The translations under genes and the position numbers were made by a program. DNA of 64,000 bases from Candidatus Tantalella remota (GTDB taxonomy: Bacteria; Omnitrophota; Gorgyraeia; Tantalellales; Tantalellaceae). Shown here in pieces: positions 2 through 64,000 of this stretch. The notes beneath the pieces were generated by a model that did not search any database, had not been told where the DNA came from, and saw only the letters and a list, made by a program, of their open reading frames with translations. The stretch is from positions 8,113-72,112 of the forward strand of contig JAVCCB010000015.1 in the NCBI GenBank assembly GCA_030765685.1, written 5' to 3'. Each line of letters opens with the position of its first letter. Positions within the stretch are counted from its first letter, which is position 1.

Positions 2-3000
2 AAACATAAAGGAACCCTCATAGAGAAAGAAGCTGTTTTTCACGAGTTGTGGGAGAATAACTTGAAAGAAAAGCACGGGACATTGAAGGCGCATCAACTT
101 GCTTCGGCGATGCAGTCACTGAACACGGAATTCCGTGAAGAAGGTCAGACTCTTACACGTTATCATTTGGCGCAGGTCACAAGTGACTTGACCGCGGCGG
201 AATTGCAGTCATTGTTGGCAGAAGACCGTGGAGCTATACGCGAGCTTATTGGGGCAGAATTAGGACCGGTAGCAAGAAGCGCCATCGAAAGGTATGAGGG
301 GCTGGTGCAGGACCAGGCGCGTATTCAGCTCGCTCAGGCCAAAGCCGAAGCCGAAGCAAGATCCCATAAAATTGCGAGGGAAAAGGCTCGGGAAGCTAAA
401 AAAGGCCTTACAGAGTCAGAAATTGGTGAAGCTGCGGACAGAATTGTCGACAGACTTATAGCCGAAGGGCGTACGAGTACAGAAGACATTGATGAGTATA
501 TTCGGGCCCAGGAGAAGTCCTACGCGCGTACCTCTAAGGCATCTCAACCCTGGCATTACATAGACGATATCGCCAGAGAAGAGGGAATGCTCCCAGCTGT
601 CCGTATTAAGCTACTTGTCGAGATATTTGTTGGAGTAAAACAAAGACTTGCAGCGCATAATCAAAAAGCGAAAGCCGCCGCCGTGGAAAAAGCCAGAATA
701 GCCAAAGCCGAAGCCGCCAAAGCCGAAAAGGCTGCGCCTGCGGCAGAGCGTGTAGTGTCACTAGCTGAGAAGATGGAACAGAAAATGAAAGATATAAAGA
801 AAAGGCAGGACGACATACGGAAGAAAAAAGAAAAGCGTGCTCAGGCAGAAAAGAAGGCCAGAAGGGTTGCGGCGGTTGGAGATATACACGGGAATCTGTC
901 CAAGCTGAGAGAAATATTGAGAGAACTGACCGGGAAGGGAAAGAAAAGAGCGGATAAGATCGTTTTCTGCGGAGATTATATGGACAGAGGCGCAAGTGGG
1001 ATTGCAGTTGTGGAAGAGCTGATGAAACTGCAGGCAGACGGGAATGAAGCCGAATTTGTCATGGGAAATCACGATATGATGTTTCTTATGGCGATGCTCG
1101 CGGGGGATAGTACGGCATTTTATAACTGGCTGCGTAACGGTGGGGTTGAGGTGATGAAGGAACTTGGGATTTCTCAGGAAGAGGCGATGGACAATATCTC
1201 AAATCCAAGAAAGTTGTTAGATCTGGATAAAAGCGGAAGGCTGAAAAAGATAATGGGCTGGATGGTCGAGAATCTTCAACTGTATCATGTTGACGAAAAT
1301 GGGATGCTATATCTGCATGCAGGTTTGCCGGTTAACAGTAATGGTCAGCTGACCCTTGAGTATGGAGGAAAAAGAGGTCTTGAGGCTCTGGATAAGATGC
1401 AGGAAGACCTGCGGAAGGATATGAAGAATCTTGCAGAAGGCAGAGAAGCCGAGAGTGACATATTTAGAAATCTGGGCGGTAAGGATTCTCCTTTATGGGT
1501 GAGAGGATGGGAGGAGAATCTTAAGAACCGGGAGCAGGTGAAGGGACTATGTGATCAACTCGGGGTCAATGGTATAGTTTTCGGACATACGAGGCAAGAT
1601 GAGTTGTTGAATATTGATGGGATGATATTCGGGATCGATCAGAAAATATTTGGTGATGAGGGAGGTATTCTTTTTGTCGAAGAGGAGGTCTTTAAGTGGA
1701 AGTCCATGGCTGTCGCGGGCATGAAAACTGTGGTTATAGGCGGGATAAAAGGCGGGCAGTATGCGGAGCTGGATGCTGAAAGCGATAATTTGACAAATGA
1801 AATTGGTCTAATGGAAAAGGAACTTTCTATTGAAGAAGAAGCGCTTGCAGAAATGTTGGCTGAAAAGGAACGCCTGGAAAAAGAAGCTGTCGAAGTTGAA
1901 AAGAAGGCGGCCCGGGAAGAGGTAACGGAAGAGCAGGTAAAACTTGATACCGCGTTAAACGCTTTTACTGATCAGGAAATGACCGATTTTATTGAGTTTA
2001 CGGATGGCTGGACTTCGGCGGACAGACTATGGCTTATTGAAGAGTTGTCCATAAGGGCCTCTCCTGCGGAAGGGCTGGGAGTAAGGTTTAAACAGCTATC
2101 CCCTGTGGGTGTCCATACTATGGTCGCTCTTGTCGAGTATCTTGATGCCGACAAAAAAGTCGTAGGTAGCCGTATAGTTAAAAGAGCGGAATCCGGTGTC
2201 TCTGATGACAAAGCCAAAGAAGATCAGCTGGCGAATCAATACGAAATGGGGAAAAGGGTGTCATGGAGCGCCAGGACCTATGAGGTAGTAAGAAGATCGG
2301 GAATGCCGCTGCTCGTAATGGCCGAACAGGTACAGCCGGCGTCAGATTATGCAAGGAACGATAGTCAGGTAGCTGAGGTGAGGGAAGCCCTCGTTCGCGT
2401 GTTGGACACCATGTACGATGACGAGGAGGGACATTTTACTATTACAGATACGCAGGATGAGTCCAGGCTGATGGACAATATAGGTGTGGTTACGGGAAGC
2501 TCCGGAACGGTCGTCGTTAAGATGATAGATATGGGTAACGTTACAGAGACTTCAGAGAGCCGTGACGCGGCTAAGGAGCGTATTCTCGCCCGTCTGGATG
2601 CTGAGCTGGTGGAGACTCAAGCAGAGAAGGAAGCCGCGGAACAGATCGTGCTGGCTAAATCAGGGATAACCGAAATGATGAAAGCGCTCACTGACCCGTC
2701 AATATCCGCGGAGCGTGCCGCGGAACTCAGGGCAGAACTCAACGACAGGCTGAAGGCCATGGAAACGGCGATTGCCCTGGCGAGGTCTAATCTGGGAGAG
2801 ATGCCTGACGGAAAAGTCAAGGCGCAGTTTTTAAAAGACATCGCCGCACTTGAGACTGATCTCGCCTACATTCAGGATTACCAGCCCGAAATACATCTTC
2901 AAAAAGCCGCCCAGCGCAGAATAGAAGAAAATCTCAAAGGGAAAAAGACAGAGAACCTTATAGCTATAGCTAAGGGGCAAAACCTGGATGCGAGGGAACT

Positions 3001-6000
3001 TGCCAGAACGGCGCTTGTTCTCCTGCTGATCGATGGCGGTGTGGATCTGCCCGAAGAAGCGGACGTCCTTTTGAAGGATAAACCCGGTCAGGTGCTCTTT
3101 ATAGAGGCGTATATGAACGCGGACCAGGGACAGAGGAGGATTATAGACGGGATACTTGAGTCGGCTCTCCTTGAAAAAAAAGGGACAGAAGTTTTCAAGG
3201 GAGCGGTAGATGTTACCAGAAGTGTAGTGCAAAGGCTCAATGAAAGTATATTGGACAAGGAAAAAGACCTGAGAAAAAGACTAGATGAGATGAGGGGGAA
3301 GGGCGATGCGGAGGCGCAGCCTATTGCCCTTTCCGGCCAGGCGCGGGATTCTGTCGAGATAGAGGCCGAACTGGAAAAGCAGCGGGCCATTCTTCAGGGG
3401 CTTAAAAAAAGGCTTATTCATTTGGCCGATAACAAGAGCTTATGGGATGAGGATATTACCAGCTACGAATTTTCCGATTTGAAGGACCTGATCTCGAAGA
3501 CTGGGAGACAGTTGGATAGTGCTATGGGAAAGTGCATGGATGATGTCAGGAGCAGGGTCGTGGATCTCAGGACAAGCATCCCGTGGCGCGAAATAGAAAC
3601 GACTCCCGTCGGGCAGAAAAGCCAGGTCATAGAACATGAGGGTAGGTTTATTCTTATTTCTACCGCGGAGCTTAACGGATACAAAGAAAGCCTGATAAAC
3701 GCGGAAAAGGAAATGCAACTGGAGATGATCTGTACGCGCCTTGATGTGGCCGAAAAAATGAGGGAATTGAGAAGTTTCAGGAATATACTGAATATGGGAA
3801 AAAAGAAAAAAACAGGTCATGCTATAAAAGTCATACTGGAGAGATGGGCCGAGGTGTTGAGGCAGGCCGGAGTGCCCGAAGCCAGCATCAAGGAGGTCGA
3901 AAAGCATATCAGTCGTTTCAGTCTGAGAAAGGCTGAAAGTATTATAGAGGAATTGCAGGAGTTGACGACAGAATTTCAGAGTACGGCAGGTATAACCGGT
4001 ATGGAACTTATTAAAAACCATGTCGGAGCTCTTGTTTTTGAGCTTAAAAAGAGCGTCACGCCAGGGACTATCGGCAGTGATGTCGGCGAGGTAACGGATG
4101 AAAATCTAATGAAAACCAACCGGGAGGTCACGAAAGAATTTATATCTGCCCTTGGAATTCTTAAGGAAGACGAGCGCCTGGCAGGTATCATAGATCAGAA
4201 AAAACTGGACGAGTGTAACCGGCTTTCTGGTGAAATACTGAAAGAGATAGAATATCAGATAAAGACGAAGAAGGACCGTTCAGGTCAAATAACCTCGAAG
4301 ACGGGGAAGCTGCTAGGCCTCATGAAGAATATGTGTTACGGAAGAAGCGTCGAGATGATAGTGGATATTTTAAAAAGTGAAATGAAGGACGCAGAGATCA
4401 CTCAGGCAAAGTTAAGTGAGGTTTTTGGTGGATTGGGCATAACGGGCCGCAAAAAAGAACAGTCTATTAATTCGGTCCTGGTTGAATCACTGACCAATGA
4501 GGACAGGTTCGCCAACCTGGCAAAAGAGATATCTAATTACATCGCTACCGGACTTGTGGGAACAGATCAGTTTGAGAAGTTCTTCGGTGAGAGCGACCAG
4601 GTGAAGGGCGCACTCGGGGATATTTCCGTGGCCGTTAGAGTTGGAGAGATCATCAGGGAAAAGGTGAGAGGCGCGGACGGAAGGGGGAGGGAGAGTTCTT
4701 CCGACAACCTTGAGAAAAGGCTGAATAAGAAATTTGACGACCTGGACGCGAGAAGGAAACTCGCTGCCTGGTACCAACTGGCGGCGATAACGACGGAGGG
4801 CAAATCACCGTTCGTCCAGCAGGTGGAAGCCGGGTTCTTTATGGCCGACAGTTTTTTTGTGGATATAGCTACCGGAGCGGGAAAGACCCTTGCTTTTCCT
4901 CTCCCGAATATCATGAACACCGCACGGGGGCTTAACAGCGTGCATTTGGTCACGGACGATTATTTCACCGAAAGGGATTTCAGGGAGACGCGTTATCTTT
5001 ACGAGATGATGGGGTACAGTGTTGATTATATGGGCGGTAACGAAAAAAGTGTGAAGAAGGCATCGGAAAGGATAGAGAAGAACGATGTTGTTATCATGTC
5101 TTACTCCGCGCTCAGTTTCACCTGTCTTGAAGCCGTCGGAAGAAAAGCATTACCCGAGAACCAGGAATGGTTCAAGCTCCTGAAACAAACCAGGCTTACG
5201 TTCGATGAATGTGACGTCGCGCCGTATCTTTCGGATTTTATAATCGCCGCCCAGCAGAACAGGGTGAGTGTAAGGGAATACGTAAGGTATCTGGCGCTTA
5301 TAAAGACCGTGAATAAACTGCAAAAGGAAGGTCAATTGAAAAAGATAATATCCCAGTTAGAGAGGAATTTGATTGCCGTTAAGGCAGTGGCCGAGGACGA
5401 GGCGGCGCAAACGGAGCAGGCGGAACAGATCGAGAAGCTGGCGAAAATGTTGGGACTTAAAAAGGGCGCTGTGGCAGTTGCCGAAGGCAGACTTTCGATT
5501 GAATCCAAGGAGGGGAAACGCGAGCTAAGACCGGAAGACCTGAGCAAACCCGTTTCCCTGGAAATCGAAGGCCAGACGTTCGTCTTAGCTCATTCAAAAG
5601 AATCAGGGTTCGTGGTGAAGAGGACCGAACTGATCGGCGAAGAGGTAAAAGATGCCAGGGGCGCTATGATAGATACCACTTCAAAGACGGCAACGGTGGA
5701 TGACGGGACATGGGAGGTAGTGTCCGATATGCTCAAGAAGGTTTCTTCGGAACTTTCCGAGATGTTTTCGGGGATAGAGAAAGAGTCTTTCGCGAAGGAC
5801 GAGTTTCTTGACTGCGTCAAGGCGCTTTATATCGACAAGCTGGGCGTTAATTATGTGCTTGAGTACATGGATGAACGCGCGTCGAAACCTATAATCCTGA
5901 ACGAAAGGGATGGGGAGATAGTGATCGAAGATACGGACGGGAAAGAGTACCCGGCTGAATTCCAGACCAGCCTGCAGGAAGACGGGTCATTCAGGGTGAC

Positions 6001-9000
6001 CTACCGGGGAGAGGAGAAGGCGCTTCTTAACGAAGACTTTTTCAAGGATGAAGAGGGTGAGGTACGAGGTGATCAAGATCAAAAAGTGATCATAAACATA
6101 GGCGAGAAGAGATACAGGGTCAGGCGGGCTGAGAAGGGCGGATATCGCTTGCAGGAAGTATCCATGGAGGTCGTCCTTGTGGATGAGCAGACTTCGCGCA
6201 GGCAGGGTGGACAGAGAAAGGACAGGTTCCACACTTTTTATGAGATGAAACATCAGCTGGGCGAAGGGGATATGCCTGAGGTGAGGCCCGGGAACAAGAG
6301 TACGGAATTCCTTTCTTTTACCGACATAGTTGACTTCGTCGATTCAGTTGGCGGCGCGAGCGGATCTGTCGCCACAGCGGCATATGTTATGAATGGGCTG
6401 TTCGGTGAAAAATCTAACGGAGTGGTAAGGATGAACCCCGCTTTTTCCAAGAAGGGACCCGATAGAATGCCAATATTTATCACGAGCGACAGGGTGCAAT
6501 GGGATATGGCCCTCAACAAGATCAAAGATATATACACGGCTTCTCCTGGAGCCGCTATGATCCTCTATTACGATGATATATATCAGGCAGAAGCTTTCCA
6601 GGTCGAGCTAGAGAAGATGATAGAGAGTGAAAAATTGGCGGATACCGCGGGCGGTGAGATAACCATACAGCTTTTTAAGGAAGAAGGGGCGAAGGAGAAC
6701 GAGTTTGTCGAGAAGGCAGGAAAGAGGAACACGATCACGCTTTCGGACGCGAAACTCGGCCGGGCGACCAACGTCATTCTTTCCGAAATAGTAGGTTTTA
6801 TTGCCAAGCACGGCGCCGCCGCCTTAACAAGACTTCTCAGGAGAAAAAAACTGGGGAGCGAGGAATATGACGCGCTATTTCTGCGAGAGTGGGCTGAAGA
6901 CGCGAAGACAGATATTGACGAGGTGAAAAAAGAGCTTGCCAAGGAGGGGTATTCCGCCGAGGAGGTGGATGTTAACCTGGAGAAACTTAAGAAAGGCGAA
7001 AGCGTCAATGCGGTCTTTCTTCACGTTCTCAAGAAGACTATCGACAAAATGAACGGGATAAACGAAGAAGTCAAAGGTCTGACAGACCTGCTTACCGATG
7101 AGAACGGAATATTCTTTATGTCCGATTACGGTAAAAGGGCGGCAAAGTGGAAGGAGATAGAGGCTTATATGAGCAAACTAGGAGCGGGGAAAGAGAGCGA
7201 AGTATGGCGTATCGTAAAACAGAAATATTGTGACGGCCTTTTTCTTATTGACCTTTCTCCGGATCTCAGCGACCAGGGAAAGGAGCAGAAATTCGGCCGG
7301 GCAAAGAGGCAGGGTGACACAGGATCTGTCCAGCCTTTTTATTCTCTCCAAAAGGGAAGGAAACTTTACGGGATGGTTGAGAAGATGTACAGCTCCCAAT
7401 ACAACAAAGACCTTACTCCGGAGCAACGAGAGGCGGGAAACGAGAAATTTGAAGAATTCGAGGAAAATATCGAGGTGATAGAAAAGCTTCAGGAAAGAAT
7501 AATACAGAAAGGACGTTTCGGGAAAGATATTAGCGATAAAGACATGGAGGATTTAGTCCGGCTACAGCGATATTTTAACGATGTCCTCCGGGAAGTCAGG
7601 ACGGGGCTTCAAAAGAGGCGTGACGATGGAAGAATAAAAAGGGCTAAGAGGGATCGCGCCACCCAGAGGCTGCTTAACGAGGTAAGGGACCTTCCGTTAG
7701 TTTTTAACGAGAAGGTTCGAAATAATCAGGAAACTGCTCGAAGGTGGCTGGTGGAAAGGGTGGACAGTATTCTGGATCTTTATATGAACGACATGAGTCA
7801 GGCGATTGACGACTCGGGGGTGGTCGATCTTGAGGAATTACTGGGGGTCATTGAGGAACACTTTCACGTGGACCTGGGCATGGAGAACCTGAAGTCCTTT
7901 CAGGTGGCACTGGAAGGGAAGAACGCCCGTGAACTTTCCACCGTGCGGCAGGACCTGAAAAGCGGCCTTCTGGAAGCACTTTACAGTATGGGAAGTGTTA
8001 CCTTGAAGGAAGGGTCCGGGGAGCTCTTGTCCGGTAACATTTCTGCCCGCCTGGAGCTTGATGACGAAGGCAAATTGAATGTAGAGGGTATGGAACATAT
8101 CCATCCTGATGGAAAGAGGGTCGAGATAGGCAAGGATCTTTACAGGGTCATATATGAAGATGACGGAAGCATGGTGGTTGATGGGCTCGGCAGAAGATTG
8201 AAATTTACACATGTCTACGGGACACAGGTCGTAGAACTTGAAGGCGGTTTTCAGGCAGCTGTTACGGAGCTCTACAGCGAAGGTCTTGACAGACTCAAGA
8301 CGGAGGTTATCCAGGAATCCCGGGAAAAGGGGCCGGAAGGGGTACAGGCCGACCGGGGAGACATAGGGTTAACAAAGGCTGCGATAAAAGAGTCCCAGAA
8401 ACGTTTTAAGGATAAACGCGATAAAGCGGTGGATTACGCTACAGAAGAAGGAAGGGAGCAACTGAAGAAGGCTTCAGGAAAGATCGATAAGAAACTTGAC
8501 GGGATGACGGACGCTCTTTCGGACCAGAGAACTGAAGCCCATGACCAGAGGGAAGCACTAAAAGAAGAAGGCAAATTAAAAGCCGTTGTAATAGAGAAAA
8601 AAGTCACGGTAAGGCGCGGTTTGATGAAACTCGGAGAGGATGAGGCAGGCGACGTAAAAGTCGGGATCCGGGCACCGAAAGAGGTAAGGTCCGGAGGCGA
8701 GGATATTTCCGGGGAGGCTCAGGCCCAGGTAATGGTGGCGGAGTCCGAGGCACCATCAGGAGTCAGATATTCGGTATCGATCGATTTTGCGGAGACTGTG
8801 GAAGATGCGAAATTAGAGAGCAGGGACGCGGAAAAGGCCAGGAAAATAGAAAAGGCGGTGGAAGACCAGAAAAAGGATGTCGAAGCGGAGGACGAGAGCG
8901 GGAAGGAAACAGCACGGAGCCATGAAGAGGGCATGCATGTGACGCCCTCCGGGGCCGATGTTTTTGTTACGGTTGAGAAGGAAAAAGGTGCTCCCCTGAG

Positions 9001-24619: not shown

Positions 24620-24722
24620 GCTCCATATTCGCTCGAGTGCTCCCGCATTTGGGCGGATATGGGGCGGGCACGGGGTCCTTTTGGGTATTTAGTATTCAGT
24701 ATATAGCATATGGTATATAGTA

Positions 24723-24764
24723 TTGAGTCTTGAGTCTTGAGTATTGAGTATTGAGTATTGAGTT
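24723..24764. repeat. Heptamer microsatellite (TTGAGTN)x6, preceded by an AGTAT-rich low-complexity tract (24686-24722)
   Basis: Read directly: tattgagtc ttgagtc ttgagta ttgagta ttgagta ttgagtt. Related TTGAG/CTCAA short repeats recur at 25975-26000, 26038-26058, 26355-26377 and 58078-58098. Confidence 0.8.
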
Positions 24765-24865
24765 TTAGTGTGAAGCGGCTAGTTTTGTTCGCTCTTTGGT
24801 CTATCTGAAAATAATTTAAAAAAAAGCATCTAGAGTAGTTCCCTCCATGGGGTCAGACCTTGACA

Positions 24866-24894
24866 TTGACATAAGCTGACTGGGTTGCTATAAT
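24866..24894 (+). promoter_or_regulatory. Sigma70-type promoter with perfect consensus hexamers upstream of the RayT gene
   Basis: TTGACA (24866-24871), a 17-nt spacer, TATAAT (24889-24894). A second overlapping TTGACA sits at 24860-24865. AAAGGAGG RBS at 24907-24915, 7 nt before ATG 24923. Confidence 0.7.
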
Positions 24895-24922
24895 CTTATC
24901 ATAGCGAAAAGGAGGTTATGGT

Positions 24923-25876
24923 ATGGCGAGACCGTTGAGGATAGAATATGAAGGAGCAGTATATCATGTAACCTCAAGAGGTAACGAAAAGAAGGATATC
25001 TATAAATCGGATCGGGATAGAGAGAGGTTTTTGGGATATCTTGAGATAGCGCATGAAAGGTTTAATATAATAATTCACGCGTTTTGTTTGTTGTCCAACC
25101 ACTATCATTTAATTGTAGAAACCCCGTGTGCTAATCTATGCAGGTTCATGCAGTTTTTAAATTCTAGCTATACAATGTATTTTAATACAAAAAGAAAGAG
25201 AAGCGGGCATCTGTTCCAAGGGAGATATAAGGCCATTCTGGTGGACAAAGACAGCTATATGCAGGAATTGAGTCGTTATACGCATTTGAATCCGATAAGA
25301 GCAAAGATAGAGAAACGTCCTGAAGATTATAGATGGAGCAGTTATAACTATTATATTAAGGATGGAAGCAAACCGGAGTATCTGGATACAGATTTCACGT
25401 TACAGTATTTCAATAATAATAGGAAAAGATACAGGGAGTTTGTCGAGGCGGGGATGACGGGGAAAACGAAGAATGTGTTTGATGAGATTAAGGCAGGATT
25501 TATTTTGGGGGATGATGATTTTGTTGAAAAAATAAAAGAGAAATATTTACAGGAAGAACAAAGACCTGAAGATCTTCCAGAACTACGAAGACTAAAAAAG
25601 AAGTATATTACCAAAGATGCAATATTGAAGGTTTTGGAGAAGGAAGCAAAAAGGGAGAAGTTAACAGCGTACTATTTGCGAAAACACACAGATGAAACAT
25701 TGCAGGGGATAGTCAAGCTGGCATACAGGGAAAAGCGCAGCAGTTCGTGTATAAGTAAAACAGTTTCAAGAATAGAAGAAAAACGACGTAAAGATAAGAG
25801 TTTTAATAAGAGGTTGGAACTTCTCGAGGAGCAAATGTCAATGTCAAGGTCTGACCCCAAAGCGGGAGGTACCTGA
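24923..25876 (+). CDS. IS200/IS605-family Y1 (HUH) transposase, RayT / REP-associated tyrosine transposase type, with a long Lys/Glu-rich C-terminal extension
   Basis: 317-aa ORF with a strong RBS. Motifs AVYHVTSRGN, HUH motif HYHLIVETP, and RYTHLNPIRAKIEKRPEDYRWSSYNYY, which carries candidate catalytic tyrosines. REP-like palindromes lie downstream in the same intergenic region. Confidence 0.85.
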   Translation: MARPLRIEYEGAVYHVTSRGNEKKDIYKSDRDRERFLGYLEIAHERFNIIIHAFCLLSNHYHLIVETPCANLCRFMQFLNSSYTMYFNTKRKRSGHLFQGRYKAILVDKDSYMQELSRYTHLNPIRAKIEKRPEDYRWSSYNYYIKDGSKPEYLDTDFTLQYFNNNRKRYREFVEAGMTGKTKNVFDEIKAGFILGDDDFVEKIKEKYLQEEQRPEDLPELRRLKKKYITKDAILKVLEKEAKREKLTAYYLRKHTDETLQGIVKLAYREKRSSSCISKTVSRIEEKRRKDKSFNKRLELLEEQMSMSRSDPKAGGT

Positions 25877-53500: not shown

Positions 53501-56500
53501 TGGGTGGATTGGCCGCGACGGTGACAATGGGCCGCGGCGCCATGGCGATAATACTTTCCTTTATCAAGGAAGACGGCAGTATTAAGCTCGTGCCGGAAGA
53601 AGAATATCCAAAAGATATATCCACGGCCCAGGCTACCGGAGAAGAATATCGGCAGGCTCATACCAACAGGCGGATACGCGCCGATATCCTGGGAGGAAGA
53701 TATGTTCTTATCAAGGTAGACGACGAAGGAGAGCTGTATCTTGAGACCAAAGGTGACAACGCCAAAGGTGTACGCAGGGATTTCAATGATAAACTTAACG
53801 CGATCAGCGATAACGAAGAGTTAAAAGCTTTCCTGGCGAAGAACAAACATCTCATCGAAGACCTTGAGATATATCTGGTGGAACCCGAACCCGGAGCTCC
53901 CGATTCGGTTCACCCGAGCCTCCTCACGTGCGACGGTCGTAACTGGCAGGTAGCGGTTTCGGGAAGCAACGGAGGAAGGTCCCAGTCAGTCTACATGACG
54001 AGGGAGTTCTTTGAGAGCATGTCGGTAGAAGACGTATTATTGCCGGTGTTGTACAACCAGATAACCCGGGCGATCATGTTGTACAGGTACTGGCATCTTC
54101 ATCCGGATATAGCGTATCCGGCAGGAAAACATACTTCACAGATACAGCGTTTCGTAGACGAGATAGTTAATACCGGTCCGGTGAGGACTGAGCTTGATAA
54201 TGTGATCCGGGATCAGATAAGGCTGAGAGAAGAGCTGGATGTAGATGAGGGGATGAGAGCTCAGCTGATATCTCTTATGGAAGCGATCATAGAAGAGAAT
54301 CAGTTTGAGGATGAGTCCGGTCGTAAACAGAAATATAAGGCTTTTATGGATCTCAGAGATGAGCTGATGAAATTTAACAGGAGTATAGAAGAACCCGATT
54401 ATGATAAGGCAGTTGAAGTGTGGGGAAAAATAAGCTACAGGGTCAACAGTATGCTCAGGGAAGGGCATGCTATGTACGATGTCGTCAGAGGCATAAATAA
54501 GATGAAACTTATTCGCGGTATTGCCAGGGAGATAAGCGGCATACTGGAACAATATGTGGCAGAGTTTGGCATATACAGGAGTGAAGGAGCGATCGAGAGA
54601 GGTCAGGCCGTCGGCAAAGTCGTTGTTATTGACAAGGTCGAGGATATAGAGGGCAGGCTGAACGATATAACGGGTGATGAAATATGGGTCCTGCCGATAC
54701 TTACGATACGCGCCCCTTATCTGGAAGGACGAGGTATTATTGTAAGCGCCGGCCAGGGAGGGCACGCGCGCCAGGTGGCCTCTGATAAGGCCCTGCCGCT
54801 GGCCAATATCCCGAACGCGATCGAATGTCTTAAACAGTTTGATGGCCAGTGGGGTATGCTCAGGGTCGAGCCCAACGGCATAGTACGTTTCAGGCCGGCC
54901 CATAAGGATGAGATAGATACGCGTGATGAATATGTGCGAAAACCGGAGGCGAAAAAAGTCGAGATCCCTAAACCTGTTCTGGGTGTGGATGTGCCTCTTG
55001 CATACGATCTGGAAGACGTCGATAAATTCTATATAAACAGGGTAGGCGCCAAGGCCGCCAATCTCGGCCATATGCTAAATAACGGTTTCGCTGAGTATAT
55101 CCCGCCGGGAGCCGCGCTTTCTTTTGAGTTCTCGTCAAGATTTATGAATACTCAGAATACTGAAGGCGTTTCGTTGAGGGACAGGATAAAGGCGATCATA
55201 GAGGATATTCCCGTTGAACGGGGAAAGGTCACGGACGAAGATCTCTTTCTGGAGATCCTCGAAAAGGCCAGAAATGAAATAATGAACACGCCTCTTGAGG
55301 GAGAAAATGGTGAGCTTAAAGAGGCGGTTCTGGCGTCAATAAGGAGGATCAGGGGAAAGGCTGGTTTGCTGGAACCAATGACTGAAGAAGAACAGTCAAA
55401 GATCCTGGAAGCGGTGAAAAAAGTAATAGCTACGAAATACACGGAAACCGCGGTCAGGTTGCGGCTCGATAATCAGGTGGCGGATGAGGACGTGTACGCG
55501 GGTATCGTATTGCAGATAGTCGGTTCTGACGCGGAGCCGGTAACCACGGATCGGCCGCAGATATCAGGTACGATCTCCACCTTTAACCCGCTTTCCACCA
55601 GCAAGGGTGAGATACATATATCTGGAGGGCCCGGAGTAGGGGCGGTCGTAGATGATGAGGGGCTTCCGGCACAGGTGATAGTCAATAAGGTCACAGGAAA
55701 GATAACTATAGTAAAGAGCACATCGGATGAAGATACCATGACAGTGCCCCAGCCCGGGACTTTTCTCGCTCGATCCTCCTTTAACTTTGAAGATCTTTTG
55801 GAGCTTTCCGGAGCCGGACAGTATGAATCTTATGCTGACCGCGAAACGAGAGAGGCGGGAGTCCCGTCGACACTGAAACAGGTCATATCAAAAGATCTGG
55901 CAACGCGTCTGGCTGATATAGGGAAAAAGATGGAACTCTTGTATGGGTACTGGCCGCAGGATATAGAGTGGACCGTGACGCCGGGCGGAAAGTTGTTCCT
56001 TGTACAGACACGATCCATCCCGGATGGAGTACCCCATGATGTTGGAGAACCCAAGCTTCTCTATACGGACATTTATAAAGATATGCTGCCCCTGGTCACG
56101 GATGAACAACTTAAACAACTGCGGGAATTGAAGCGTGAACGCAATGCACCGGCGCTGCTTGATCTGATCCAGATTGGAAAGATGGATTTTGAGTTATATA
56201 GGAACAAGGCGGAACTCGGTACGCGGATCATCGCGGTTTCGTATTTGGAAAGTTTACTTGCCAAAGATAAAACGATTGGCGAGGGGTTGACCGAAGAGAC
56301 AGTCGACGCCATGATGGCATATGCTTTAAATCCGTCTAATATGCTAACTGCCCCGGGTATGTTAAAAGCTTTGTCTCATCTATCTGATTCCCTCCGGCAC
56401 AGGGAGCGGCTGAAACTGCAGGCAGAGATGGCCGATATAGAAATGGGTACCGGTATAGGCGGTCACTTAGGCTGGCTCGCCTTTGCCGAATTCGCTTCCA

Positions 56501-57873: not shown

Positions 57874-57974
57874 TCGCAAACTGCTGGTCGTGCGGCCGGT
57901 CAGATGTCATATGGTTTGAGATGTTGTAGTATTTTTAAGTAGCAAACGGCGAAAGGAGGTCGGGGGAAAAGTTT

Positions 57975-57996
57975 GGTTCGAGAGTTCACTCGAACC
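57975..57996 (+). other. Perfect 8-bp hairpin ggttcgag-agttca-ctcgaacc downstream of ORF2
   Basis: Read directly. No T-run follows, so it is not called a terminator. Confidence 0.4.
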
Positions 57997-58036
57997 ATGT
58001 AGAGGTGCACAAAACCTTCCTGCATCTCGAAGAAAA

Positions 58037-58064
58037 GGCTCCGGCCGTAAGGTCGGAGCCTTTT
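58037..58064 (+). terminator. Rho-independent terminator candidate for ORF2
   Basis: ggctccggcc-gtaa-ggtcggagcc: 10-bp GC-rich stem with one G.U pair and a GNRA-like loop, followed by TTTT (58061-58064). About 165 nt after the ORF2 stop. Confidence 0.6.
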
Positions 58065-58078
58065 CAATTGTAGAGTAG

Positions 58079-58123
58079 GTTAAGGTTGAGGTTAAGGACG
58101 TCATTCCCGCGGAAGCGGGAATC
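58079..58123. repeat. REP-like hairpin (cattcccgc-GGAA-gcgggaat, 58103-58122) with adjacent linker ggttaaggttgaggttaagg. Inverted copy of the composite at 26339-26377.
   Basis: The reverse complement matches gcgggaatgacatcctttcttaacctcaacctcaacc, found upstream of ORF2. Confidence 0.65.
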
Positions 58124-58325
58124 CATTGATAATGATAGGTATGCCGTTTATGGTTAATAGGTTACGTCTTTGGAATCGTTAAAGGGTTTACGGCTGGGGT
58201 TGAACCGCCACCTCTTAACGTAAGACGTTTCGATAGACGCAACCCTTCAACGTGATCCGTATTTGTTCCTGATGTCCCAATATTCTGCTTTCCTGGTCCC
58301 GATACCCGGTTTAACCTGGTCGAAA

Positions 58326-58401
58326 TTAACCTGGTTATATTTGCAGACCTGCCTTGATGTTTCATCAAGGCACCCCCCCCCCATGAAAATAACCAGGTTG
58401 A
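58326..58401. repeat. Structured intergenic element: 11-bp inverted repeat aacctggttat / ataaccaggtt enclosing an 8-bp hairpin (58352-58370) and a C10 homopolymer (58373-58382)
   Basis: Read directly. The IR core equals the tandem-repeat core at 26141-26194. The C10 tract could be slippage-prone. Confidence 0.7.
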
Positions 58402-58436
58402 AAATGCGACCCTATCTTGATCTTAAGCTGCACATC

Positions 58437-58507
58437 GTCATCCCCGCGGAAGCGGGGATCTAATGAAAATATTACTTCCATTTGATTCCCGCGTTCGCGG
58501 GAATGAC
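58437..58507. repeat. REP doublet in opposite orientations: gtcatccccgc-GGAA-gcggggatc (58437-58460) and gattcccgcg-TTC-gcgggaatgac (58484-58507)
   Basis: Two 24-nt palindromes 23 nt apart. The second is the reverse complement of the 58100-58123 type, a BIME-like inverted REP pair. Confidence 0.75.
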
Positions 58508-58827
58508 GTTCGAGTTTGTCCCTGATATCCCGATATCCTAGTCCTTGATCCCCAGATTCCCTGATGTCCTGCTCCTACGAGTATCCAGGATCTGATGACT
58601 GGTTACTGGATCCCCGATGATTGCAATACAGTAAAGGTTTGTAAAACTAGGTTTATGGGTAGTTCTGTGAGGTCACTAGAGGGTTCCCAGGAGCCTTGAG
58701 AGGCGAGAAATGGTGCGTTCGGTCTTCTTATATTATTAATACTAAAAGAGCCCGAGAGGCCATTTTAAGCGAAAAAAGCAGTTTTTTCGCCATGCGGTTA
58801 AGGTGTAAAATAGCTAGAAATAAGGCT

Positions 58828-58855
58828 TTGACAAACTTTCCAAATATGATAAGAT
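58828..58855 (+). promoter_or_regulatory. Candidate sigma70 promoter for ORF3: TTGACA (58828-58833), 16-nt spacer, extended -10 TGaTAAGAT (58847-58855)
   Basis: Perfect -35 hexamer. The -10 hexamer is 4/6 with an upstream TG. About 125 nt upstream of ATG 58981. RBS GGGAG at 58973-58977. Confidence 0.45.
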
Positions 58856-58980
58856 AGTACAGTAATTAGCCATACAAAAAGTAAGAATTTTCCGAACTGT
58901 TTGGTGATCTTAAAAAGGTCAAGAACGGGAAGGGATTCGTATACTCTGAGAAAGTCAAACCCTTTAATAAGTGGGAGTTT

Positions 58981-61900
58981 ATGAGTAGAGATCACAAAAT
59001 TTTCAAAATTATCGCGCTTGTCGTCGCGGGTATTTTCCTGTATCAGCAGATAGTATGGGCCGCTGGGGATATGGCTAATACCGCGCATATGGCGTCAGGT
59101 GATCATGGCCTGCCCATTGCCGCGCCTATCAATATCTCAGAAGAGCTTGCCCAGACAGAGACTATACAGATCTCCGGTAGCGGTGAAACGATAATCAACA
59201 TTCAGGATTGTCACTCCTCTCTTTCAGCGCAGTATTCAATAGTAGAGATACTCGAAGAACTGATGAATAATTTTAACATGAACGTTGTCGCCGTCGAAGG
59301 CGGACACGGGTACCTTGATACGTCCATACTCAAGAGTATGCCGGACAGCGGGATCCGCGAAAAGACCGCTGAATACCTGATGAAAGAAGGCAGGATATCC
59401 GCCGGTGAATTTTTTGCCGCGACGACAGATAAAGATGTAGCTATATACGGTGTCGAGAATAACGACCTTTATCAGGAAAACGTAAACGTCTTTCGGGAGA
59501 TACACGCGGGAAACCGCTCTAACATAGAGGATATTAATTCTCTTATAGAGGAACTTAAAATAAAGGAAAAGGAAGTTTACTCAGACAGTCTGATAAAACT
59601 GGTATATAAGTCCCGTCTTCATCAGAGCGATAGGATAACCTTCGATGTGTATTGGGATTTCTTAAAGGACGCGTGCGAGGCGGCCGGGGTTGCCACGGAT
59701 CAGTACGTTAATATAAACAGTTTTACCGAGTCAGTACAGCTGGAAAAAAGCATAGATTTTGATAAGGCTACCGACCAGAGGAAAGCTCTTATCGGTCTTC
59801 TTATGGCAGAGCTGAATAAGGAAGGGCTGGAAGAACTTGTCTTAAAGTCTGTCTCTTTCGAGAAAGGGGAGATCGATCAGGCGGAGTACCATAGATGGCT
59901 TCTGGATTTTGCCGGGACAAGGTGGGTCGAGACCTCGGCCTTTACGGAGCTTTGCAAATTTTCAAAATATGCTACAGAGTACAGAAAGCTCGATGTGATA
60001 GGTCTTTCCAGAGAACTTGATGGGGCTGAAAAAGAACTTCTTAAAAGATCATTTTCATCCGATAAAGAAAAGGAGCTTTACAGACTTATCAGGATATTGG
60101 AACTTGTTAAGTCACTGTTCAATATAGAACTTTCGAGAGAAGATCTTAGCGCGTTGACGCGTTACCTGGAGATGGTCTCCGCGGAAGAATATACGGGATA
60201 TTCCAGGGAAGATGACCTCTCGGAGGAACGCCTGGATGGCATATTCGCTGAAGCGAAACAAGCGTTAGAGTTTTACCGCCTGGCAGAGATTCGTAATCAG
60301 GCTATGATCGAGAACACTGTCAAGGCTATGCGTGAAGAGGGACGGCAGGTAGCCGCGCTTATATCGGGAGGGCATCATGCTGAAGGCCTTACCGGAATAA
60401 TGAAGGAAAAAGGATTATCTTATTTAGTGCTTATGCCGAGGGTAACGGGAGACAAGTCCCGTCCGTATGTGGCTGTTCTTACGAAAAAGACCGGCCCGTA
60501 CAAGGAACTGATATCAAGCGGAGAGTACGATCTGGCGCTTCAGGCGCTGTTCGATTCGGGGTCTCTCGCGGAACTTGACGATATGTTCGTCTACTGGTAC
60601 GACCAGACGCTCGCCTCCGGAGAGGATATGCGGAAGGCCATCGATCAGATGGTGCTTAATTACAGAGATATACAGGAAGGTATTTCCGCATCCCGCCGCG
60701 CGGCCATGGATTTTGATCCGGTGAAACCGGAAGAGCTTAAGAATTATCTGGAGTCTATAACGAAGGACGAAGAGACAGGGTCGATAACGACGGAAAACGG
60801 AGTGTACAACGTAACGGAGAAGGGAATAAAGCTCGAAAGACGCGTTAAGAAAGTATCCAAGGATGAGATAACCGGCGCGGGTATGATACCCGCGATACGG
60901 TATATCCTGGAGAAGCGAAACATATCTCTTAAGCATCAGGCCTGGATGGAGCAGTCACTTTTCTGGGGGATAAACCTGAGTGTCGTCGGGATGATGTCAT
61001 CCAACGTCATGCTCGGGACGCTGATCACGTGGATGACATTCATGATGGCTCATTTTTTTAAGACTAAGGACATGCCAAACGCTCCTCCGTCGTCTTCGGT
61101 CATTACGGTAGGGCTCATAAACGCACTTTTCGCCGCCGCAAGCGTATCGTCCTTTAATATCCCGGTAATAATAATCTCTTTTATAGTAGCAACTCTTATC
61201 CACCATTTCGCGAATATCAAAGGCGAAGTGCCGGGGCTTAAATACGTTATAAATGCTTTTGAGAATCTGTCTTTCGTGAAAAGTATACGTTTGTCATTAG
61301 AGATCAAAGCCACCACGGATGAGAAGGAGAAGCTCGTTCTTATCGCGAGGAGACAGGGGCTTGAGTTGACCCCGGAAGACCTTAAGGACCTGGATGACCA
61401 GTTTTTCCGAAATGTTACGAGTACATTGCTGGAAAGCGCCCGGGAGATGCGTATGAGTCCCGGGATGCTGAAGGAATTATACAGACCGACGCGTGTTACG
61501 GAGATAAGCATACCGGTAAAAATGGATTCTGGAGAGACAAAGACATTTGACGGATACAGGATATTGCATAATGACGCGCGAGGGGCGGGTAAGGGAGGCA
61601 TAAGGTTCCATCCCGCTGTTACGCGTGGCATGGTAAGAGCTCTCGCTACCGATATGACATGGAAGAACGCTATAGTCGGTATACCGTTCGGCGGGGGAAA
61701 AGGCGGTATCACGGTCGATCCGAGAGAGATGTCAGAGACCGAGATGGAAAAGCTTTGCCGGGGGTATGTGAGGGAATTGCTTAAGAAAAATCCCAGAGCC
61801 ATAGGTGTTTTTGATGATGTGCCGGCTCCGGATGTCGGTTCCACCGCGCGGCACATGGCATGGATGCGTGACGAATACGAGAAGATAAAGGAAATAGAGG

Positions 61901-64000
61901 ATGATTCCGCCGCTGGCGTGATCACGGGGAAACCTATAGATCAGGGCGGGTCGGAAGGGCGTACGAAAGCGACAGGGCAGGGAGTGTATTTCGCGGCACG
62001 CGAAGCCATAAAAACTTTTGGCGATAATCTCGACATAGGGGCGGATATGACCAAATGCACCTACTCCTTTCAGGGAGCAGGTAATGTAGCTTTCGAAGCC
62101 ATAAAGATATTTTTCGCCGCCGGCTGTACGAAGATCCATTACATGAGCGACGTGTCGGGCGGAATACACATGACGAACGGCCTGGACGAAAAACTGCTCG
62201 CCGCGCTCGAGAAACATCTTTCCAGCAAAGCCCTTCTTGAGGAGTTCGAGTATGAAGGAGTAGAGCATGTTCCAGGCGCAGCGGTGCTGGAAGCCGATGT
62301 GGACGTACTTATACCGGCGGCTCTGCAGAACCAGATAACAGTCGAAAATGCCGATAAGGTTAAAGCCAGGCTTATCATTGAAGGGGCGAACGGTCCGACT
62401 ACTCCGGAAGCTGATGAGATACTTTTTAGTAATGGACAGGTAGCTGTCCCCGATATACTGGCTAATGCCGGTGGTGTAACGGTATCCTACCTGGAATGGT
62501 TACAGAATATACAGAGAGAACATTGGGCGCTTCCGGCTATAGATAAGATGCTGGAAGAAAGGATGTCGATAGCATTTATGAACGTGGTCAAGACTGCCCG
62601 CGCGTATAGGACTGATCTTCGTACGGGCGCGATGCTTCTGGCTCTCAAAAAGGCCGCGGATGCCGAGACGGCCAGAAAATTTGGGGCATCCCGGAATAAA
62701 AGGGAGAAAAGATCATATAGGTCAAAAGTAAACCTGTATTCTCCGGATACATTCGAAGAGCTTAATTTCATAATAGATAAAGGAAAATATAAGAAGCTTA
62801 TCAGAAACCTTGAGAGGCGCAAAAGGCGGGAGCTAGAGTATACGGTTCAGGAGATAGAGGAAAAGTTTTCAGGCGCGGAAGGAGTGGTGCTTATCACCGG
62901 TCCCGTAGCTGTAGGCAAAGCCGCATTGGCGCAAAACCTCAGGAGATCCCTTATGCTTAACGGCCGCAAAGCTAAGGTACTTCACCTGGACGGTCATGGA
63001 CATGATATCAGTGACGCTGAACGTCTTCTTAGCGGTGCTACTGTGGGCGTTAGTCCGGCGGAACAGTTCTATTATGAGGAAGACGTAGAAGAGCTCAAGC
63101 TTGAAGAGAATGACATACTTATTATAGAGGGTGCGGAAGCTTTCGCGCCGAAGATAACGGAACTGCTGGCTGGAAGAGGAAAACCCACATATAAGATTTT
63201 CATGAACACGGCGCCTTCGATGAAACTGAGGGACAACTATCCGCTGACCTCACTGCACGCACGCATGATGAGAGACATACTTGACAGAAGGATCACGGAG
63301 AACAAAAGACCGTCGGAGACGCTTTTGCCGATAGTAAGGGGGCGCAGCACTCAGTTGGATTTACTGTATCCGAGATGGGTGATGGCAGACAAGACCATAG
63401 GCGCATATATGCCATATGAACTTCCGATACTTAAAAGAGAGATCTGGGAGGATCTTCAGGAAGACCTTGAGAGTGTGCGGACGGAGCTGTTGCGCGCGAA
63501 AAAACACTCCGAACACAATAATTCTGAGTATATAGAGGAGATATCGACAGTTCTTAAGAATATGGAAGACCTTTATTATCTTCTTGAGCCCGTTGCGGCT
63601 GCGCCGGAAGATATTAATTTGCCTAAATGGTCCATAATGAGGCAGTTTCTGAGTCCGGAGAAGAAAGAAGAATTTAAGATGGTAGACCTTGTGAAGGCGG
63701 CCGGTCTTATCGTGGTGGCTGCTTTTGCTATGGCGGTGTTCACACCGCTGATATCAATGGCCGCGGATATGTCGGTGCCGAAAGCGGCATTGCTCTCATT
63801 GCTTCTATTAAGTTTCCTGGCAACGACGGGGCTCGGGGTGTATTCTATCGCAAAGGGAGGCGCCAGGGGACAGAGGAATGGAGCTTTGCTGGTTATGATC
63901 GCCATGCTGGGCGTGATCGTGGGCTCTTCCACATACCATATGGAATACGGCCTGCAGGCAGGTTCCCGGAGAGCAGAACAGACCGATCTCACGCAGAAGA
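58981..64000 (+). CDS. Third giant-type ORF, 3'-partial (>=1673 aa, runs off window end). Contains an N-terminal signal-anchor plus TraB/GumN-like module, a TM block, an ELFV-type glutamate dehydrogenase domain, a uridine-kinase-like P-loop domain and a C-terminal TM block.
   Basis: Translated codon by codon from ATG 58981 to the window end with no stop codon. Good RBS. Not listed in the ORF track only because it has no stop in the window. Confidence 0.9.
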   Translation, partial: MSRDHKIFKIIALVVAGIFLYQQIVWAAGDMANTAHMASGDHGLPIAAPINISEELAQTETIQISGSGETIINIQDCHSSLSAQYSIVEILEELMNNFNMNVVAVEGGHGYLDTSILKSMPDSGIREKTAEYLMKEGRISAGEFFAATTDKDVAIYGVENNDLYQENVNVFREIHAGNRSNIEDINSLIEELKIKEKEVYSDSLIKLVYKSRLHQSDRITFDVYWDFLKDACEAAGVATDQYVNINSFTESVQLEKSIDFDKATDQRKALIGLLMAELNKEGLEELVLKSVSFEKGEIDQAEYHRWLLDFAGTRWVETSAFTELCKFSKYATEYRKLDVIGLSRELDGAEKELLKRSFSSDKEKELYRLIRILELVKSLFNIELSREDLSALTRYLEMVSAEEYTGYSREDDLSEERLDGIFAEAKQALEFYRLAEIRNQAMIENTVKAMREEGRQVAALISGGHHAEGLTGIMKEKGLSYLVLMPRVTGDKSRPYVAVLTKKTGPYKELISSGEYDLALQALFDSGSLAELDDMFVYWYDQTLASGEDMRKAIDQMVLNYRDIQEGISASRRAAMDFDPVKPEELKNYLESITKDEETGSITTENGVYNVTEKGIKLERRVKKVSKDEITGAGMIPAIRYILEKRNISLKHQAWMEQSLFWGINLSVVGMMSSNVMLGTLITWMTFMMAHFFKTKDMPNAPPSSSVITVGLINALFAAASVSSFNIPVIIISFIVATLIHHFANIKGEVPGLKYVINAFENLSFVKSIRLSLEIKATTDEKEKLVLIARRQGLELTPEDLKDLDDQFFRNVTSTLLESAREMRMSPGMLKELYRPTRVTEISIPVKMDSGETKTFDGYRILHNDARGAGKGGIRFHPAVTRGMVRALATDMTWKNAIVGIPFGGGKGGITVDPREMSETEMEKLCRGYVRELLKKNPRAIGVFDDVPAPDVGSTARHMAWMRDEYEKIKEIEDDSAAGVITGKPIDQGGSEGRTKATGQGVYFAAREAIKTFGDNLDIGADMTKCTYSFQGAGNVAFEAIKIFFAAGCTKIHYMSDVSGGIHMTNGLDEKLLAALEKHLSSKALLEEFEYEGVEHVPGAAVLEADVDVLIPAALQNQITVENADKVKARLIIEGANGPTTPEADEILFSNGQVAVPDILANAGGVTVSYLEWLQNIQREHWALPAIDKMLEERMSIAFMNVVKTARAYRTDLRTGAMLLALKKAADAETARKFGASRNKREKRSYRSKVNLYSPDTFEELNFIIDKGKYKKLIRNLERRKRRELEYTVQEIEEKFSGAEGVVLITGPVAVGKAALAQNLRRSLMLNGRKAKVLHLDGHGHDISDAERLLSGATVGVSPAEQFYYEEDVEELKLEENDILIIEGAEAFAPKITELLAGRGKPTYKIFMNTAPSMKLRDNYPLTSLHARMMRDILDRRITENKRPSETLLPIVRGRSTQLDLLYPRWVMADKTIGAYMPYELPILKREIWEDLQEDLESVRTELLRAKKHSEHNNSEYIEEISTVLKNMEDLYYLLEPVAAAPEDINLPKWSIMRQFLSPEKKEEFKMVDLVKAAGLIVVAAFAMAVFTPLISMAADMSVPKAALLSLLLLSFLATTGLGVYSIAKGGARGQRNGALLVMIAMLGVIVGSSTYHMEYGLQAGSRRAEQTDLTQK
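59011..60560 (+). other. N-terminal module of ORF3 (anchor helix KIIALVVAGIFLYQQIVWAAG plus TraB/GumN-like domain), paralogous to ORF2 aa 40-580
   Basis: IINIQDCHSSLSAQYSIVEIL...NVVAVEGGHGYLDTSILK...EGRISAGEFFAAT...VAALISGGHHAEGLTGIMKEKGLSYLVLMPRVTGDKSRPYVAVLTKKTGPYKELISSGEYDLALQALF aligns block by block with the ORF2 N-terminus. Confidence 0.5.
61390..62680 (+). other. Glu/Leu/Phe/Val (ELFV)-family amino-acid dehydrogenase domain (glutamate-dehydrogenase-like), complete, embedded in ORF3
   Basis: PTRVTEISIPVKMDSGETKTFDGYRILHNDARGAGKGGIRFHPAV. IPFGGGKGGITVDP with the catalytic Lys (61687-61710). VPAPDVGST. Cofactor Rossmann segment FQGAGNVAFEA. C-terminal ANAGGVTVSYLEWLQN. Confidence 0.85.
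62884..63470 (+). other. P-loop NTPase domain resembling the uridine kinase / phosphoribulokinase family (Walker A has Ala instead of Ser/Thr; may be degenerate)
   Basis: VVLITGPVAVGKAALAQNL (GxxxxGKA). DILIIEGAEAF parallels dvvivEGilal. KIFMNTAPSMKLRDN...RMMRDILDRR parallels iFvDtdadvRLaRRi.RD. RPSETLLP...LLYPRWVMADKTI. Confidence 0.35.

Follow-up and report, generated by a model that had tools for sequence, protein, structure and literature searches.

Tandem giant genes for putative mosaic membrane proteins in Candidatus Tantalella remota share a conserved N-terminal head with other Omnitrophota loci

Giant open reading frames (ORFs) are common across all classes of the Omnitrophota (PMC10066038). 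Their products have been described as having many transmembrane (TM) helices, divergent SecA DEAD domains and a content of glycosyltransferases (GT) and glycoside hydrolases (GH), and a cell-wall-degradation hypothesis has been put forward for them (bioRxiv 10.1101/2023.11.21.568195). A 'multi-enzyme' architectural class has also been distinguished, with about one TM helix per 370 amino acids (aa) and frequent transposase flanks (Nielsen & Lui 2026, bioRxiv 10.64898/2026.06.07.730766). We have analyzed a 64-kb stretch of Candidatus Tantalella remota (contig JAVCCB010000015.1; the window means this whole stretch of 64,000 nucleotides (nt), whose numbering is used throughout) that is nearly filled by three giant genes, ORF1, ORF2 and ORF3. 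On balance, the comparisons described below lead us to favor the interpretation that it is a stretch of Omnitrophota chromosome that would carry three members, each with its own promoter, of a very large family of long-to-giant, multi-pass membrane mosaic proteins that is specific to this phylum.

ORF1 is cut at its 5' end (2-24619, plus strand; frame 2 is open over nt 2-24616, that is 8205 codons, with the stop at 24617-24619), ORF2 is complete (26545-57873, plus strand, 10442 aa) and ORF3 is cut at its 3' end (58981-64000, plus strand; frame 1 is open over 58885-63999, the first in-frame start is the ATG at 58981 and the product has at least 1673 aa). All three are co-directional and together cover ~95% of the window, slightly more than the ~92% given in the original prediction, whose claim of three giant genes in tandem was borne out by the open frames and by a uniform coding composition. 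The GC content at the three codon positions was ~0.56, ~0.38 and ~0.54, with purine at position 1 at ~0.7, and these values were constant across all 3-kb windows of the ORFs, including the stretches without any Pfam match; the spacers lacked a coding pattern. With the observed base composition stops would appear by chance at a frequency of ~0.05 per codon, against 8205 and 10442 codons open; chance cannot account for an open frame of 10442 codons, and since ~5% of random codons would be stops, the frames are kept open by selection. The longest nucleotide repeat anywhere in the window had 43 nt and none of 30 nt or more was found inside the ORFs, where the sole tandem repeat is one of 15 nt (AGCTCCGGTATTGGA x 3.6) at 32697-32750 in ORF2. 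Sigma-70-like promoter sites were found on the plus strand by a promoter scan before ORF2 (26464-26491, TTGCCT-16-TATACT with TG, followed by the Shine-Dalgarno sequence GGAAGGTG and the ATG at 26545) and before ORF3 (58828-58855, TTGACA-16-TAAGAT with TG). Thus, the prediction that each gene has its own repeat-rich spacer and promoter-like sequence holds for these two; for ORF1 the upstream region falls outside the window.

The closest described systems are the 'Archaeovorin'-type giants (West-Roberts et al. 2023) and the 'multi-enzyme metabolic cluster' class (Nielsen & Lui 2026), which belong to the same phylum and are also long ORFs with a TM segment every 300-400 aa. They share with the genes of the window a divergent SecA_DEAD domain without scaffold or wing, GT and GH modules, TPR scaffolds, many unrelated enzymes, nearby transposase genes and a poor conservation beyond a few modules. 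The sizes differ, 8-10 thousand aa here versus >30 thousand aa for the 'giants' of West-Roberts et al.; ORF2, with 10442 aa, lies above the bar of at least 10,000 aa used by Nielsen & Lui and not above that of >30,000 aa, and ORF1 and ORF3 are cut by the window. The SecA DEAD domain, which is present in most, not all, published giants, was detected in ORF1 and was not found in ORF2 or in the visible part of ORF3. The ORFs of the window also differ from the published giants in that searches of them revealed neither a methyltransferase or NUDIX domain nor a C39 or S8 peptidase or a dockerin, and no type II secretion system or pilus genes are present in the window, both ends of which fall within giant ORFs. 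The description of mosaic multi-enzyme membrane proteins fits the published class, and the locus is a further, ordinary example of a published phenomenon. A term search of West-Roberts et al. 2023 and Nielsen & Lui 2026 returned no mention of a TIKI-like head, a conserved tail, head-to-tail arrays, an upstream RND pair or an embedded glutamate dehydrogenase (GDH), features that are described in what follows.

The first 650 residues of ORF2 (26545-28494, plus strand) form a module that we call the head, delimited by paralogy, alignment and predicted structure. ORF3 starts with a paralogue (58987-60759, plus strand), aa 39-643 of ORF2 and aa 35-625 of ORF3 being 36% identical (E 3e-114), and both proteins have an N-terminal hydrophobic anchor. 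In ORF2 the anchor (aa 42-64) has positive residues on the N-terminal side of the hydrophobic segment and is followed by an alpha/beta core, which a helical insert (aa ~202-500) divides in two. The nearest folds to this core are those of TIKI, erythromycin esterase (EreA) and ChaN, with a Foldseek match that was not significant. No significant match was found to the Pfam models of the TIKI/TraB/EreA/ChaN clan; one of 23 head members gave Cofac_haem_bdg at E 0.068, and the ORF2 copy gave none. Five residues of the ORF2 head are invariant in its alignment, namely D116, H118, E146, R486 and H514 (all but R486 in an alignment of 23 sequences), of which D116, H118, E146 and H514 make up an acidic-x-His pair, a Glu 28 residues on and a C-terminal His (D-x-H...E...H). 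The catalytic 2His/2Glu set of RRSP is E3900/H3902/E3930/H4030, and Bcr135 has H85/E113 (PMC6254334). The head motif mirrors that of these two proteins, including the His-Glu distance, as judged by sequence spacing and with Asp instead of Glu as the first acidic residue. The comparison is with the superfamily of TIKI/TraB/PrgY/GumN/erythromycin esterase/ChaN (EreC 6xcq, Bcr135 2rad/3b55, ChaN 2g5g, RRSP 5w6l), from which the head differs in having its core interrupted by ~300 aa of helical insert and in being the N-terminus of proteins of several thousand residues. We consider it quite probable that the head is a TIKI/Ere-type hydrolase. By way of analogy only, with no homology claimed, MARTX toxins are also very large, with conserved ends and variable central enzyme modules, and their effector RRSP has the TIKI fold; however, their type I secretion, glycine-rich repeats, autoprocessing cysteine protease and absence of internal TM segments have no counterpart in what was found in the ORFs of the window.

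The head is widespread. A search with ORF2 aa 1-650 in a large protein collection gave 50 matches (best 58% identity), and 300 loci confirmed by tblastn were found in species-representative genomes (best 64% identity). Among the 79 head loci listed the labels were Omnitrophota or metagenome-assembled genomes named 'uncultured Planctomycetia', and among the protein matches with a source name 49 of 50 were Omnitrophota/Omnitrophica, in agreement with the original assignment of this giant-gene locus to an Omnitrophota-like bacterium. In 77 of these 79 loci the head was the N-terminus of its ORF, at no more than ~150 nt from the upstream stop, the other two being cut at the start of the contig, and in 65 of the 79 the head-bearing ORF ran past the end of the DNA fetched (up to 10 kb). 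When a head profile was searched against 1.84 billion protein cluster representatives, there were 9187 matches at E<=1e-3, of which 5651 reached E<=1e-30; among the top 150, nearly all had the head at their N-terminus, and their lengths went up to 7834 aa.

The other end of ORF2 is also conserved. Its last ~370 residues (aa ~10070-10442, 56752-57870, plus strand), the tail, match the C-termini of ~17 long ORFs in other Omnitrophota loci, and 13 of these matches reach the ORF2 C-terminus or stop no more than 10 residues short of it. Some of the tail-bearing ORFs start with a head; others lie upstream of a head gene, with ~130-530 bp between their stop and that head. For the last ~230 aa a HAD-like Rossmannoid fold is predicted by a model that is confident in part, with no conserved DxD in an alignment of four sequences, and we do not claim that the tail is a phosphatase. 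A search with the tail in a large protein collection retrieved three fragments only, and the collection appears to be devoid of giant proteins. ORF1 ends in a different type of C-terminal module (aa 7746-8205, 23237-24616, plus strand), which by blastp also ends the upstream giant ORFs of loci L002 and L018 (35% and 31% identity, the alignment reaching the last residue); kinship between the two kinds of tail was ruled out by hhalign, in which ORF1 against the ORF2 tail profile gave a probability of 0.4.

The tandem layout recurs in other genomes. In 23 of the 48 loci with enough upstream DNA the head is preceded, at a distance of less than 4 kb, by the end of an open stretch of at least 1500 aa on the same strand, and contig WJMG01000045.1 has at least three consecutive giant ORFs, the middle one of ~31.6 kb if the central 10 kb that were not fetched are open. 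Heads with no giant gene before them often come right behind a pair of RND efflux pump genes: in L001 and 14 further loci, two paralogous RND transporter genes (ACR_tran) directly precede the head gene and have its orientation (RND-preceded head loci include L001, L003, L011-L014, L017, L021, L038, L044, L047, L060, L064 and L069). In the complete genome CP070780.1 the RND pair is itself preceded by MFP and OEP genes. Altogether, 37 of the 48 heads come behind another giant gene or an RND pair.

The modules between head and tail form a chain that diverges fast and in which hydrophobic segments set one module apart from the next. The closest relative, L002 (JBAROK010000058.1, 9857-19909), is 62% identical to ORF2 over the first ~770 aa and has no detectable identity over the next ~2500 aa, the head being kept and the body replaced. 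In four head-bearing proteins (P0049, P0050, P0020 and P0024) an acyl-CoA dehydrogenase, a tRNA-guanine transglycosylase or HEAT repeats come right after the head, and these differing modules underline the cassette-like nature of the bodies. A wider scenario is possible, to which we give tentative credence at most. The array would start behind an OEP-MFP-RND-RND pump, and an anchored hydrolase head and a conserved tail would define a distinct superfamily that has so far gone undefined. The ends would serve biogenesis, processing or export as well as recombination, and the bodies would be swapped as cassettes, an idea taken from the loss of identity immediately after the head in L002, making up a diversity-generating system for envelope enzymes.

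Eight of the eleven modules named in the original prediction were reproduced. For ORF2, aa 1-9400 were scanned against Pfam both as a whole piece and in chunks of 1000 aa; as a single sequence this region gave no significant Pfam or PDB sequence match, and phmmer against PDB found nothing for aa 1-4900. The GH family 5 (GH5) glycosidase that had been predicted was borne out solely through a profile of orthologous segments. It is a divergent, mannanase-like module (aa ~7019-7304, 47599-48456, plus strand) located in ORF2 by the motif FNEPE at aa 7171-7175, and a profile of five segments (ORF2 and four other Omnitrophota giant ORFs) matched the GH5 mannanases of PDB at 5.8e-14. Four of the five segments also matched PF00150 (Cellulase; best 6.3e-12), the ORF2 copy alone remaining below the threshold. 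The catalytic NEP (acid/base) and GE (nucleophile) of the family and its conserved R, H, Y and W are all present, the invariant positions in the five-segment alignment being R7061, N7172-E7173-P7174, H7237, Y7239, G7263-E7264 and W7298. Two TM-like segments follow (aa 7376-7394 and 7434-7462). The second recognizable enzyme of ORF2, an ATP-grasp nucleotide-binding domain (PPDK_N 2.3e-25; aa ~9489-9838, 55009-56058, plus strand), had been predicted correctly. It is of the phosphoenolpyruvate (PEP) synthase/rifampin phosphotransferase type, with the NCBIfam PEP synthase models aligned at ~8-335 of their ~800-900 positions. The PEP-utilizer domain that was also expected in ORF2 did not appear: only the N-terminal ATP-grasp part of PEP synthase aligned, there was no match in ORF2 to the swivel phospho-His (PEP-utilizers) or to the PEP/pyruvate-binding domains and no [TS]SH[AGS][AS] motif, so a complete PEP synthase or pyruvate phosphate dikinase was rejected. 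A HIT/GalT motif and a nucleoside triphosphate (NTP)-transferase-like region of ORF2 were likewise not found by family or motif searches. None of the three ORFs contains HxHxH or HPHxQ, and regular-expression searches of the ORFs for HIT, GalT, NTP-transferase, PEP-utilizer and protein-kinase motifs were all negative.

Two further modules of ORF2 are conserved and recognizable at motif level only, with no Pfam or PDB match. The one at aa 860-1340 (29122-30564, plus strand; alignment of seven sequences) has an invariant HExxH (aa 1128-1132) with a downstream Glu, is kept in seven head-bearing ORFs and is set between TM-like segments; going by these features, it could be a membrane zinc peptidase. 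The other (aa ~5240-6570, 42262-46254, plus strand) has in its alignment an invariant WWYQRSRWI (QRxRW-like, aa 5857-5861) directly followed by the densest TM cluster of ORF2 (~14 segments), an arrangement reminiscent, as a likeness of motifs, of processive GT2 synthases. This module might be the source of the earlier NTP-transferase-like call.

ORF1 yielded clearer family matches, and the phosphatase, SecA-like motor and GT2 synthase that had been predicted for it were all recovered. The first is an ApaH/PrpE-like metallophosphoesterase (aa 288-530, 863-1591, plus strand; Pfam Metallophos 1.7e-16, NCBIfam ApaH 3e-13) in whose sequence the motifs GDIHG, GDYMDRG, GNHD and GHT can all be read intact. 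The motor (aa ~1565-2451, 4694-7354, plus strand; SecA_DEAD 1.1e-14, PDB SecA chains 3e-6, NCBIfam secA 2e-14) consists, in this order, of a first nucleotide-binding domain (NBD1/DEAD) with the P-loop TGAGKT and DECD, a long insert and a weak NBD2 (P-loop_SecA 1.6e-4, below the cut-off). The NCBIfam SecA models cover positions ~46-184 of ~790 (46-159 for the secA model), no PPXD, scaffold or wing domain was detected in ORF1, and no SecA domain other than SecA_DEAD scored above the cut-off. With the full set of NBD1, PPXD, NBD2, helical scaffold, wing and C-terminal domains lacking, this is a SecA-like motor domain and not a SecA. A region rich in TPR follows (aa ~3606-7212, 10817-21637, plus strand), which matched multiple TPR families and has intervening TM-like segments by hydropathy scan. 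The GT2 glycosyltransferase (aa ~7411-7745, 22232-23236, plus strand; Glycos_transf_2 7.6e-12) is PgaC/IcaA-like (1e-11), with the motifs DGS...TDAD...QYRRY and 3-4 TM-like helices behind them. Against PDB sequences phmmer gave no match for ORF1 aa 4001-8205.

In ORF3 the predicted GDH is complete, with both ELFV domains at full Pfam model length (61411-62676, plus strand; PF00208 1e-63, PF02812 6e-49). It matches the GDH of Thermotoga (2tmg) at 1.3e-100 over residues 18-409 and NCBIfam GdhA_Arch at 2e-121, and the catalytic-Lys signature IPFGGGKGGITVDP and the dinucleotide-binding motif GAGNVA are intact. It is atypical for this enzyme to be embedded in a larger protein, here with TM-like blocks on both flanks. 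The kinase-like domain that had been placed in ORF3 was recovered as a weak P-loop kinase-like stretch (GPVAVGKAAL ... IIEGAEAF; 62884-63144, plus strand), whose family scores are weak (APS_kinase 9.5e-4, nSTAND3 9.7e-4, both below the cut-off).

The two spacers (24620-26544 and 57874-58980) are rich in repeats and the first one contains a gene that the original prediction had overlooked. Directly 3' of the ORF1 stop there is a heptamer repeat (TTGAGTA, ~12 copies, 24681-24763, found by TRF), followed by an element (24835-25876) with a gene for a REP-associated tyrosine transposase-like (RAYT-like) protein of 317 aa (24923-25876, plus strand; Pfam Y1_Tnp 1e-10). The gene looks intact, with the motifs HUH (HYH) and Y..NP, and is flanked by inverted repeats of 43 nt (24835-24877 and 25830-25872), the left one including a perfect 12/12 sigma-70 promoter (24866-24894). 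With REP/RAYT elements it shares the Y1 HUH domain and the flanking inverted repeats, and GC-rich palindromes cluster in both spacers. However, the protein is about twice the usual RAYT length, its score to NCBIfam REP_Tyr_transpos (NF047646; 1.9e-18, 66.8 bits) is below the cut-off of 80 bits, and what ties it to the palindromes of the window is proximity. Further repeats are found in spacer 1 at 26126-26349 (TAACCTGGTYATAT units at 26127-26194 and a REP-like palindrome at 26221 and 26339) and in spacer 2 at 58098-58509 (three REP-like palindromes at 58100, 58437 and 58497, and a 30-nt TAACCTGGT element at 58311-58340, with an inverted copy at 58387-58400). Five of the seven exact half-site copies of the palindrome GTCATYCCCGC...GCGGGRATGAC in the window are in the two spacers, which also share the 30-nt TAACCTGGT element (TTAACCTGGTC....TAACCTGGTTATAT). 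Palindrome and element could be either REP or miniature inverted-repeat transposable element remnants or shared regulatory sites of the giant genes. The same palindrome was found in loci L053 and L055. At 160 nt past the ORF2 stop there is a strong 15-bp hairpin (GAAAAGGCTCCGGCC/GGTCGGAGCCTTTTC, an inverted repeat at 58032-58065, plus strand), a candidate terminator that lacks a T-run and that the terminator scan did not pick up. Between the stop and this hairpin, a 34-nt stretch (58001-58033) is 91% identical to positions 9584-9617 of L019, just past a tail-bearing ORF, and may be a conserved post-tail element. No tRNA or Rfam family was found by scanning the window. Of the 25 minus-strand ORFs with at least 150 aa, 10, including the eight longest, had no Pfam match, and we have taken these as antisense artefacts.

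How would such proteins be arranged in the cell? A Kyte-Doolittle hydropathy scan, which is a crude predictor of TM segments, gave ~8 hydrophobic segments in ORF1, ~29 in ORF2 (~1 per 360 aa) and four blocks (an estimated seven helices) in ORF3. They come roughly every 300 aa and between the enzyme modules, in agreement with the interleaving of TM blocks and catalytic modules stated in the original prediction. Each polypeptide would cross the inner membrane back and forth, with modules alternating between the cytoplasmic and periplasmic faces, and would thereby form a platform on which several enzymes are tethered to the membrane. Glycans of the envelope or of the host surface would be the targets of GH5 and GT2, and the SecA-like ATPase may help the insertion or export of its own chain, an idea from the literature. 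On the outer face, the head would be a hydrolase competent for catalysis, either an esterase or a peptidase, whose target may be the chain itself or a substrate. A RAYT/REP mobile system would have colonized the spacers. The envelope-spanning machine acting on polysaccharide or cell wall that had been proposed finds some support in the GH5 with its NEP and GE intact and in the PgaC-like GT2 followed by TM helices. Of all the modules these two, hydrolysis by the one and synthesis by the other, are in the best-supported reading those most clearly tied to the surface; as a whole we infer the machine from its parts, and a role of the proteins at the envelope, in glycan turnover, seems plausible.

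Several points weigh against this picture. The locus is known here from sequence alone, and the N-terminus of ORF1 and the genes flanking the array lie outside the 64-kb window. Over ~90% of ORF2 Pfam and PDB searches recognized no domain, and nothing evident connects polysaccharides with five of the modules, namely the TPR scaffolds, the ApaH-like phosphatase, the GDH, the ATP-grasp domain and the P-loop kinase-like stretch. The hydropathy scan puts the NAD(P)-dependent GDH of ORF3 and the head, which is presumably external, on one side of the membrane, because the hydrophobic block of 44 aa in front of the GDH (aa 736-779, 61090-61221) resembles a hairpin of two helices; the topology is then unusual, unless the crude TM calls are mistaken. 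The charge bias around the ORF2 TM segment 870-894 also conflicts with an outside head. Contradictions of this kind leave the alternating faces as a proposal, and the assignment of sides by TM parity was dropped altogether. They agree with the published remark that predicted localizations in giant proteins are sometimes implausible (bioRxiv 10.1101/2023.11.21.568195).

The giant ORFs could instead be polyproteins, operons written in a single frame and cut into separate enzymes by built-in hydrolases such as the TIKI-like head and the HExxH module of ORF2. The head retains the catalytic-type residues of the peptidases and esterases of the TIKI family and the HExxH motif is conserved, although no family or structure matches this module; cleavage by N-terminal C39/S8 peptidases has been raised for other giants (bioRxiv 10.1101/2023.11.21.568195). 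In ORF3, furthermore, the GDH is complete and ordinary. This enzyme is normally a hexamer, which is hard to reconcile with its being tethered in a chain of 10 thousand aa. On the other hand, neither cleavage sites nor processed products are known, the head is probably across the membrane from the cytoplasmic-type modules, and the TM segments between modules suggest permanent anchoring, so that we find this explanation unlikely, though the least so of the three considered here. It is more doubtful still that the proteins are an extracellular structural or adhesive coat for attachment to host or prey, with the enzyme-like modules being secondary. Such a role was put forward for giant ORFs of Velamenicoccus and of other Omnitrophota (PMC10066038; bioRxiv 10.1101/2023.11.21.568195), and the long TPR scaffolds of ORF1 and the large part of ORF2 without recognizable enzymes would suit it. 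But dockerin, TSP3, discoidin, laminin G and Ig-like domains were not detected in the Pfam scans of the ORFs, and the SecA-like ATPase, ATP-grasp, GDH and ApaH-like phosphatase are typical cytoplasmic, nucleotide-dependent enzymes with their motifs intact.

We consider it very improbable that the array is an artefact, be it mis-assembly at the spacers or decaying sequence held open by a purine-rich strand bias. The mobile-element repeats of the spacers, the strong purine skew of the plus strand and the lack of an independent copy of the locus in the collections searched would point in that direction. Against them stand the 8205 and 10442 open codons where ~5% of chance stops are expected, the uniform coding periodicity and the intact catalytic motifs. 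Furthermore, head, GH5, tail and other segments are 23-64% identical in other genomes, in the same order and with the next head 130-530 bp on. Chimerism at the spacers is unlikely, because tail, short spacer and head follow one another in many other genomes too and the repeats have 43 nt at most. We keep to the interpretation of three separately promoted members of an Omnitrophota family of membrane mosaic proteins.

Omnitrophota giant genes are an open problem and account for a large part of genomes that are themselves very small. This locus offers handles on them, that is, a conserved and well-modelled head with a catalytic-type motif, a conserved tail and a recurrent array layout with an RND pump. 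Head, tail and array could be used to classify thousands of giant genes, to locate where these really begin and end when an assembly is fragmented, and to guide experiments on their processing and export.

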